From: a virus
Taxonomy: Duplodnaviria; Heunggongvirae; Uroviricota; Caudoviricetes
IMG/VR virus record: IMGVR_UViG_2740892369_000030
Reading direction: 5' to 3' (one strand)
DNA: 5,162 nt
This document shows, piece by piece, positions 4,395 through 5,162 of this stretch (positions are counted from its first letter, which is position 1; every line of letters starts with the position of its first letter). The notes under the pieces are model-generated. The model saw only the letters and a program-made list of their open reading frames with translations. It made no database searches and was not told where the DNA came from. A program made the translations under genes and the position numbers.

Positions 4395-4616
4395 ATGGCG
4401 GTATTTTATATTCCTGATATTTACGGACGCTTTTACCTGGTTAATTTCGATAACGTGAAGGTGATTTCACTGGCCGAAAATAAAGAATGTGGCGATTTAC
4501 TTTTTGAATTTAATGACCGCACACGAATGGTGATATCTGCCGGACTTGATCGCGAAGGTGCGACAGACGTTTACAGCGGAATATGCCGTTCTGTTGGTGC
4601 GAAACAAGTCAGCTAA
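4395..4616 (+). CDS. Small hypothetical early protein (73 aa), first gene after B; positional equivalent of the Mu kil/semi-essential region
   Basis: ATG at 4395 is preceded by AGGTG (4384..4388) at 6-nt spacing and lies 2 bp after the B stop; a GTG at 4389 overlapping the B stop is an alternative start. No recognisable motifs; function not inferable from sequence. Confidence 0.5.
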   Translation: MAVFYIPDIYGRFYLVNFDNVKVISLAENKECGDLLFEFNDRTRMVISAGLDREGATDVYSGICRSVGAKQVS

Positions 4617-4628
4617 ATGAGGTGTTAT

Positions 4629-4883
4629 ATGAATATGCAATCCTGCGGTAACAAAATGAATTTATTCGACTCCCTGAACAGCGCGCGCCGTCTGACCGAA
4701 CTTGCCGGTGCGGTACTGGAACGCAGTAAGCGCTACCCACAACGTTTTGCACTGAAAACCACGCCGCCGGTAGGCAACGTGCAGGGAACCGGTGAAATTG
4801 AAATCACCATACAGACCAACGGCCTGCGCCGCCGTGTGAAGGCCACCCGCATCAGCGGCTGCACGGTTTACTGGGAGGTGTGA
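4629..4883 (+). CDS. Small hypothetical early protein (~84 aa)
   Basis: The ORF opens at the ATG at 4617, directly after the previous stop. Better-supported starts are the ATGs at 4629 or 4635, downstream of GAGGTG (4619..4624). Stop TGA at 4881..4883. No recognisable motifs. Confidence 0.45.
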   Translation: MNMQSCGNKMNLFDSLNSARRLTELAGAVLERSKRYPQRFALKTTPPVGNVQGTGEIEITIQTNGLRRRVKATRISGCTVYWEV

Positions 4884-4884
4884 G

Positions 4885-5162
4885 GTGAAAAAAAATCTCA
4901 TTGCATGGGCGTGGTCGAGTGGTCTTATTGAGTTTGGTTACGTCCTGCCGGAAGGTGCATTGCCGATAGTTGCCGGAAAGCCTGCCACGGTACGGCATGT
5001 GATTGAGGTTATGGCGCGTCATGGACGTGATGAACAGGAGCAGTTACTGGTTCCGGGGATACCGGAAGCGGTGACGGAGGAAGAAGCCTTTAATGCCATG
5101 ATTCGGTTCTGCCGTGAGGTCAGACGCCGGGTCAGTTATCCAAACAGAACGAGGACCAGAGG
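4885..5162 (+). CDS. Hypothetical early protein, 3'-truncated by the window edge (GTG start)
   Basis: My own translation from GTG at 4885 (VKKNLIAWAWSSGLIEFGYVLPEG...), preceded by GGAGG (4874..4878) at 6-nt spacing, stays open for 92 codons to the window end. Absent from the ORF track, presumably because it has a GTG start and no stop in the window. Begins 1 bp after the previous stop. Confidence 0.45.
   Translation, partial: MKKNLIAWAWSSGLIEFGYVLPEGALPIVAGKPATVRHVIEVMARHGRDEQEQLLVPGIPEAVTEEEAFNAMIRFCREVRRRVSYPNRTRTR

Follow-up and report, generated by a model that had tools for sequence, protein, structure and literature searches.

Bacteriophage Mu carries, downstream of its transposition gene B, a semi-essential (SE) early region that extends from kil to gemA. 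According to the account of Waggoner 1989 cited in PMC3961180, expression of Mu kil kills cells and turns them spherical. Mu Kil (gp5, Mup05) has nothing but its name in common with lambda Kil and Rac KilR, to which it is not related (PMC3961180). When the SE region is deleted from replication-defective Mu, viability after infection is restored (PMC3325207), and a literature search on the target of Mu Kil found no work. The wording "septation inhibition" used for Kil in PHROG is loose, because the phenotype of Mu kil is killing together with spherical cells. Here, the corresponding region is described for the Mu-like prophage Sp18 of Escherichia coli O157:H7 Sakai, from a 5,162-nucleotide stretch of DNA (the window; IMG/VR record IMGVR_UViG_2740892369_000030) that is the left end of Sp18 and 100% identical to it. 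Three small open reading frames, ORF1, ORF2 and ORF3, follow B at the end of the window. It is very probable that they are genuine early genes of Sp18, with ORF2 encoding Kil, ORF1 and ORF3 encoding accessory proteins, and the functional label on ORF3 being an annotation carry-over.

A Kil homologue downstream of B

ORF2 is, as judged from profile comparisons, a full-length homologue of Mu Kil and the putative Kil protein of the phage. It matches the PHROG family phrog_2679 ("Kil protein") with an E-value of 6.6e-46 and, more weakly, phrog_2743 (9e-4), the family to which Mu Kil belongs; Mu Kil in turn cross-matches phrog_2679 at 9.3e-5. Sp18 Kil thus forms a subfamily distinct from that of Mu (phrog_2679 versus phrog_2743). 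Alignment of the Sp18-type and Mu-type subfamilies with hhalign gives a probability of 95.2% (E 2.5e-8) over 64 columns, nearly the full length, against 0.3% for the reversed-sequence control. Kil-like ORFs from diverged viral contigs bridge the two subtypes by matching both Mu Kil and ORF2; their pairs of scores are 5e-9 and 3e-6 for L087 and about 1e-22 and 1e-4 for L073 and L089. ORF2 and Mu Kil also have two motifs in common, a central R-x-x-L-x-x-T-x-P-P and a C-terminal G-C-x-[IV]-x-W.

Existing annotation of close relatives points the same way. A 76-amino-acid protein of a Salmonella Mu-like prophage bears the Pfam domain PF26843 (Kil_protein) and shares 67% identity with ORF2; in that prophage the gene order after B is an ORF1 homologue (80 amino acids), Kil (76 amino acids) and an ORF3 homologue (90 amino acids). 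In the newest PGAP annotation (NZ_CP193494.1), WP_001057199.1, which is identical to ORF2, bears the name "Kil protein family". Scans of the three Sp18 proteins against Pfam, NCBIfam and PADLOC returned no match; for ORF2, the missing match in the first Pfam scan arises because the Pfam copy used does not contain PF26843, and Mu Kil itself is unmatched in that copy. The preliminary description of the locus had treated all three proteins as being of unknown function and free of recognizable motifs. ORF1 and ORF3 do belong to uncharacterized families, but for ORF2 the homology to a named Mu early protein, Mu Kil, refutes that part of the description.

The likeness to Mu Kil extends over essentially the full length of the protein (the 64 aligned columns) and includes both motifs, and in each phage kil is a small gene in the early operon downstream of B, with about 75 amino acids in the conserved core. 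The two proteins differ in that identity is only about 25–33%, in that ORF1 separates kil from B in Sp18, and in a nine-residue N-terminal extension of ORF2. The conserved core of ORF2 comprises 75 amino acids from Met10 (position 4656) and leaves out the first nine residues. Because the Kil homologues of Salmonella and E. coli RM9245 start at the Met10 equivalent, the first nine codons are lineage-specific or possibly untranslated, although a Shine–Dalgarno (SD) sequence precedes position 4629. Killing and cell rounding are known for Mu Kil only.

Conservation and packing of the three genes

All three ORFs are real, conserved early genes. As placed in the preliminary description, they coincide exactly with the RefSeq coding sequences ECs_4947, ECs_4948 and ECs_4949. 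The B gene ends with TGA at 4390–4392, and after a gap of 2 nucleotides ORF1 begins with ATG at 4395, with the SD sequence AGGTG 5 nucleotides upstream. ORF1 ends with TAA at 4614–4616 and is followed, after 12 nucleotides, by the ATG of ORF2 at 4629 (SD GAGGTG, 4 nucleotides upstream); ORF2 ends with TGA at 4881–4883, and a single nucleotide separates it from the GTG start of ORF3 at 4885 (SD GGAGG, 5 nucleotides upstream). The plausible ribosome-binding sites proposed earlier are therefore present for each gene at 4–5 nucleotides, and the proposed gaps of 1–2 base pairs or overlapping stops apply to the B–ORF1 and ORF2–ORF3 junctions but not to the 12-nucleotide junction between ORF1 and ORF2.

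Ratios of nonsynonymous to synonymous substitution rates (dN/dS), estimated by the Nei–Gojobori method against diverged E. coli relatives and one Salmonella relative, are 0.18–0.26 for ORF1, ~0–0.08 for ORF2 and 0.17–0.25 for ORF3. All three genes are under purifying selection. Each matches a PHROG family with an E-value of 1e-43 to 1e-47, and conservation and a coding signal (dN/dS 0–0.26) are thus found in related elements for the whole block, in agreement with the preliminary description. A promoter and terminator scan found no plus-strand promoter or credible terminator between B and ORF3, and an Rfam scan of the block gave no match. None of the encoded proteins has a transmembrane segment or signal peptide (maximum KD19 score ≤1.16).

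The ORF3 family and its "host nuclease inhibitor" label

ORF3 matches phrog_1518, named "host nuclease inhibitor", and carries the same name in the old Sakai annotation. It is a member of an existing large phage family that is almost confined to the early operons of transposable phages, and searches with tblastn detect homologues in Pseudomonas phages of the D3112/JBD type and in Stenotrophomonas and Burkholderia phages. A word-indexed search with the single sequence retrieves only 7 near-identical proteins, and an alignment query is needed to recover the family; the alignment-based search yields 2,222 members, nearly all of which are free-standing proteins of 85–93 amino acids with no Pfam domain. 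Strong conservation of the family extends over several genera; positions G13, I15, P22, G24, G31, R45, P57, G58, P60, E61 and A62 are invariant and give the motifs W-x-SGLIEFG, PEGA, ARH and LLVPG[VI]PEA. ORF3 has an isoelectric point (pI) of 9.5 and a basic C-terminal tail, and its fold is confidently predicted as a small three-strand sheet with helices. Some longer homologues possess uncharacterized Cys-rich or other extensions; these extensions and the neighboring Zn-ribbon genes (P0097, P0054, phiSHP3 orf6 and Mu gp6) were set aside as generic zinc ribbons for which no significant family was identified.

The label on ORF3 is an annotation carry-over without homology support. ORF3 fails a test of homology to Mu Gam, with no Pfam match, and the Gam domain is absent from all of the best 120 family members (0/120). 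In blastp comparisons of ORF3 with the Gam proteins of Mu, Sp18 and D3112, only an out-of-frame part appended to the D3112 model matches. This model, annotated as "gam" (NP_938220, L004 5476–6276, 266 amino acids), contains the ORF3 match in its 3′ third. In another frame, the same D3112 DNA encodes a canonical Gam C-terminus, ending in TGIEDFAIVPFEAEVQ and a stop codon and identical to Gam of JBD69, and the ATG of an ORF3-like gene follows directly. In JBD69, Gam (172 amino acids), gp13 and the ORF3 homologue gp14 (92 amino acids) are separate genes. Because the Gam end and stop lie in the other frame and the JBD69 genes are separate, the D3112 "gam" model is a frameshift chimera, and its interpretation as a "Rosetta stone" fusion of Gam and ORF3 was rejected on the same grounds. 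The name most likely spread from this chimera onto more than 2,000 unrelated small proteins.

ORF3 has only the database name and genomic closeness in common with the Mu Gam family (PF07352), to which it is unrelated in sequence and predicted fold. Sp18 moreover has a bona fide Gam of its own, which shares 57% identity with the Mu protein and is encoded three genes downstream of ORF3. Literature searches found nothing relevant on the function of the ORF3 family or of DUF3164, and no report of ORF3 protecting linear DNA ends from exonucleases. As a separate observation, JBD69 gp13 (125 amino acids, L005 2116–2493), also labeled "host nuclease inhibitor", matches positions 174–298 of phrog_18351; the first half of this 298-amino-acid family is Gam, and it may represent another Gam fusion or a mis-modeled gene pair.

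The predicted fold of ORF3 weakly resembles MbtH-like adaptors, at 9–14% identity. This is a resemblance of fold only, and homology was rejected, as hhalign against verified MbtH sequences gives 0.2% over 4 columns and there is no Pfam match. Compared with MbtH-like proteins (PF03621; for example PA2412 and YbdZ), ORF3 lacks the sequence signature, consisting of conserved tryptophans and the SxWP, PxGW and WTDxRP motifs. Its conserved R-H...LLVPG[VI]PEA segment and its long C-terminal helix are additional features.

Linkage of ORF3 to Kil and to Gam or DUF3164

The genomic neighborhood of ORF3 was surveyed from 275 relatives in viral contigs, of which 80 loci were kept and 54 diverged loci counted. 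Mu-type markers (A, B, GemA or Mor) are present in 51 of the 54. Kil is detectable in 31, lying directly upstream of ORF3 in 20 of these. Gam occurs in 19 of the diverged loci and DUF3164 in 30 (49 in total), and the two are never found together. ORF3 lies within 700 nucleotides of Gam or DUF3164 in 47 of these 49 loci, on the upstream side in 35 and on the downstream side in 14. Since Gam and DUF3164 occupy the same operon position and do not co-occur in the 54 loci, the survey suggests that they are alternative, possibly analogous modules in one slot.

The linkage of ORF3 to kil and to the Gam/DUF3164 slot is real, yet phylogenetically non-independent. Joint action of ORF3 with Kil and/or the end-protection slot is a tentative, unproven lead, and on present evidence an unlikely one. 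A more specific and more doubtful proposal is that the ORF3 family is an unrecognized core accessory factor of transposable phages, an MbtH-like adaptor for Kil and/or Gam/DUF3164, and that ORF1 is a lineage-specific protein that modulates Sp18-type Kil or MuB. If the adaptor proposal were true, the name "host nuclease inhibitor" would by accident be nearly right, as the label of a partner protein with a new mechanism.

ORF1, a narrow enterobacterial family

ORF1 matches PHROG 3375, a family of unknown function, and represents a narrow, lineage-specific family of Enterobacteriaceae; like ORF3, it is thus a member of an existing, uncharacterized phage family. Homologues of ORF1, with 55–97% identity, are confined to E. 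coli, Salmonella and Klebsiella, and a profile search of 1.84 billion representatives recovers just 15 clusters. A few of these are large repeat proteins (P0177, P0181 and P0185), which were set aside because the matches reflect only a local β-hairpin motif in surface-repeat proteins. Conserved motifs of the family are IPDIYGR, NFD, ECGDL and GLDREGA. The gene keeps a constant position between B and the Sp18-type kil, and does so in the most distant relative too.

Within E. coli, ORF1 alleles show a synonymous divergence (dS) of 0.56–0.67, against 0.07–0.15 for the adjacent B gene, at a dN/dS of ~0.2. This excess over B indicates that alleles have been exchanged by recombination at the scale of a single gene. 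The predicted fold of ORF1 is LytTR/PH-like without sequence support, and the model is of moderate confidence (pLDDT 77). Two further candidate relationships were discarded. A match to the OB-fold region of archaeal PolD DP1 is non-significant (E 0.08), and the similarity of residues 35–72 to Mu Mor (36% over 39 amino acids) is spurious, with an hhalign probability of 0.2% and no reproduction with either Sp18 Mor or Salmonella ORF1.

Comparison with the Mu region and turnover among relatives

All three ORFs lie on the same strand between B and gam/gemA/mor of a transposable phage, and the earlier placement of the block in the counterpart of the Mu SE region, between B and gam in a Mu-like phage, holds. 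Position, orientation and operon logic agree with the Mu region, and so do the downstream genes gam, gp11-like, gp12-like, gemA and mor. The interval from kil to gam differs, consisting of gp6–gp9 in Mu and of ORF3, o4 and o5 in Sp18, and no homologue of ORF1 or ORF3 was found in any frame of Mu. A weak match also connects Mu gp7 to phrog_2230, the family of Sp18 o5 (E 0.009; o5 is L001 9141–9434). The genes in the same slot in Salmonella and in L095, a diverged Mu-like prophage, are o5-like, and together these may constitute a distant gp7 family across these phages.

The preliminary description also held that this region varies among relatives, and several cases bear this out. In E. coli RM9245 (L012 2830–3540) and in the Mu-like insert of LC727895 (L011), only the final ~22 codons of ORF3 are left, and ORF1 and kil are separated by the insertion of a Mu gp8-like gene (139 amino acids); in the RM9245 variant, kil begins at the Met10 equivalent. 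Because natural relatives have it deleted, ORF3 is dispensable in nature. In L095, the ORF3 slot between kil and the o5-like gene holds an uncalled 58-amino-acid zinc-ribbon ORF (5456–5633). It has Lar-like matches below threshold (PF14354, E 1.2e-4, 22.7 bits against a cutoff of 28.6; phrog_599, 2.7e-5), and is a possible Lar-like restriction alleviation protein. The alternation of Gam and DUF3164 adds to this variation. The block is the start of an ordinary, mosaic Mu-type semi-essential early region, and its contents are unsurprising for such a region.

Alternative explanations

The notion that one or more of the three ORFs are chance open frames could appeal to their shortness and to the lack of Pfam or NCBIfam matches in the copies searched. 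It is extremely improbable, given purifying selection in the annotated frames, homologues and gene order kept in Salmonella and more distant elements, strong PHROG profile matches, good SD sites at the starts and a confidently predicted ORF3 fold; the comparative data already refute it. ORF1 could also be a miniature LytTR-like protein that binds DNA and regulates either the early operon or host genes, but this is very unlikely. LytTR homology was rejected with hhalign (0.4%, 11 columns), there is no Pfam LytTR match, and a profile search against PDB sequences finds no LytTR. PH-like folds score almost as well on a model that is only moderately confident. ORF1 is also acidic (pI 4.85) and smaller than a LytTR domain (PF04397), at about two-thirds of its size. 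It has no profile-level similarity to either the LytTR or the PH-like superfold; the resemblance is one generic to small β-sandwich-plus-helix proteins.

Two functional readings of the accessory genes deserve more weight, each of them still unlikely. ORF3 could be a true host-nuclease inhibitor, or an accessory subunit of DNA-end protection acting with Gam or DUF3164, as its closeness to these genes in the surveyed loci, the ORF3-like gene directly after gam in D3112 and the basic C-terminal tail would allow. However, ORF3 does not resemble Gam in sequence, what looks like a fusion with Gam is the product of a frameshifted gene model, the Gam domain is missing from every one of the 120 best family members, and the predicted fold has no nuclease-inhibitor match. 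In Sp18, two other genes lie between ORF3 and gam; non-transposable podophages of Burkholderia that have no Gam nearby carry family members too, and ORF3 is deleted in relatives that retain gam. Alternatively, ORF1 and/or ORF3 could be anti-defence proteins that neutralize a host immune system early in infection, a rather improbable reading with which their accessory early location, the turnover of the slot at single-gene scale, the possible Lar-like ORF in the ORF3 slot of a relative and the dS of ~0.6 among ORF1 alleles in E. coli (flanking B, 0.07–0.15) are compatible. Neither protein resembles a characterized anti-defence protein or domain: comparison with anti-defence and defence families in Pfam, NCBIfam, PADLOC, PDB sequences and BFVD gave no match, no dedicated anti-defence library having been searched, and a search of the literature on anti-defence genes within the early operons of Mu-like phages was likewise without relevant results. 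Their dN/dS is well below 1, ORF3 is conserved across genera with invariant motifs, unlike patchy, fast-evolving anti-defence genes, and neither protein is strongly acidic like DNA mimics (pI 4.9 for ORF1 and 9.5 for ORF3).

Prophage Sp18 and layout of the window

The 863 bases over the three-ORF block recur at 100% identity in many complete genomes of E. coli, among them Sakai, where RefSeq annotates the stretch as "prophage Sp18, Mu-like phage". The block is present in 232 of 5,426 complete E. coli genomes, with at most four copies per genome; Sp18-like elements thus occur in ~4% of complete genomes, mostly those of Shiga-toxin-producing strains. The chromosomal site of Sp18 differs by genome: sorM is interrupted in Sakai (L001 3143–3796), and yeaQ and an IS200/IS605 element adjoin the prophage in E2865 (L002 1–1800). 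Such differing sites, together with up to four copies per genome, are consistent with ongoing transposition. Sp18 is predicted to be intact and Mu-like (PMC2669165), and a mutant strain had lost it (PMC13502914). Because it is predicted intact, was lost from a mutant strain and occupies different chromosomal sites, Sp18 is apparently an active transposable prophage.

The features of the window are listed in Table 1. The stop codon of ORF3 lies 4 nucleotides past the window end and overlaps the ATG of the next gene (ATGA). Downstream of ORF3, Sp18 carries o4, o5 and then gam, with gemA and mor further on. The intergenic region between A and B contains a hairpin with a 13-base-pair stem (3396–3425), which the scan flags as a minus-strand terminator-like site.

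Table 1. Genes at the left end of prophage Sp18, in window coordinates (window position = position in the Sakai record, L001, minus 3701)
Feature	Position	Strand	Evidence and remarks
c-type repressor gene, ECs_4943	328..858	-	RefSeq coding sequence, L001 4029-4559; divergent from early operon, as in Mu
ner-like early regulator, early operon gene 1	1049..1297	+	Pfam HTH_35, E 2.5e-19; Mu ner position
MuA-type transposase	1299..3389	+	Pfam Mu-transpos_C, 1.5e-17; HTH_Tnp_Mu_1
MuB-type AAA+ transposition protein (B)	3460..4392	+	Pfam Phage-MuB_C, 2.5e-25; AAA_22; 48% identity to Mu B
ORF1, ECs_4947, 73 amino acids, pI 4.9	4395..4616	+	RefSeq coding sequence; small, soluble and rich in beta structure, from a narrow family of Mu-like prophages in Enterobacteriaceae
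ORF2, ECs_4948, WP_001057199.1, 84 amino acids	4629..4883	+	RefSeq coding sequence; putative Kil, homologue of Mu gp5 Kil
ORF3, ECs_4949, 93 amino acids, GTG start	4885..5166 (window ends 5162)	+	RefSeq coding sequence; early-protein family of transposable phages

Proposed roles and implications

Within the semi-essential (accessory early) region of Sp18, ORF1–ORF3 lie at the end nearest the promoter. Their arrangement suggests that the early promoter most likely drives them together with ner, A and B, and, because each ORF has its own SD sequence and the gaps measure 1–12 nucleotides, that they are most likely translated by coupling. On expression of the early operon, the Kil protein encoded by ORF2 would be expected, by homology with Mu Kil, to cause host damage or killing and cell rounding. 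ORF1 and ORF3 are predicted to be small soluble cytoplasmic proteins without enzymatic signatures; most likely they act by binding to another protein and so serve as accessory factors of host takeover or as modulators, and ORF3 appears to travel with kil and with the DNA-end-protection slot occupied by Gam or DUF3164.

Two annotations can be corrected on this basis: ECs_4948 should be named Kil, and the name "host nuclease inhibitor" is unsupported on ECs_4949 and on thousands of its relatives. The putative Kil of Sp18 and the two conserved early proteins beside it are candidates for host takeover in what is apparently an active transposable prophage. For the large uncharacterized family to which ORF3 belongs, the linkage to kil and to the Gam/DUF3164 slot provides a concrete, testable hypothesis.
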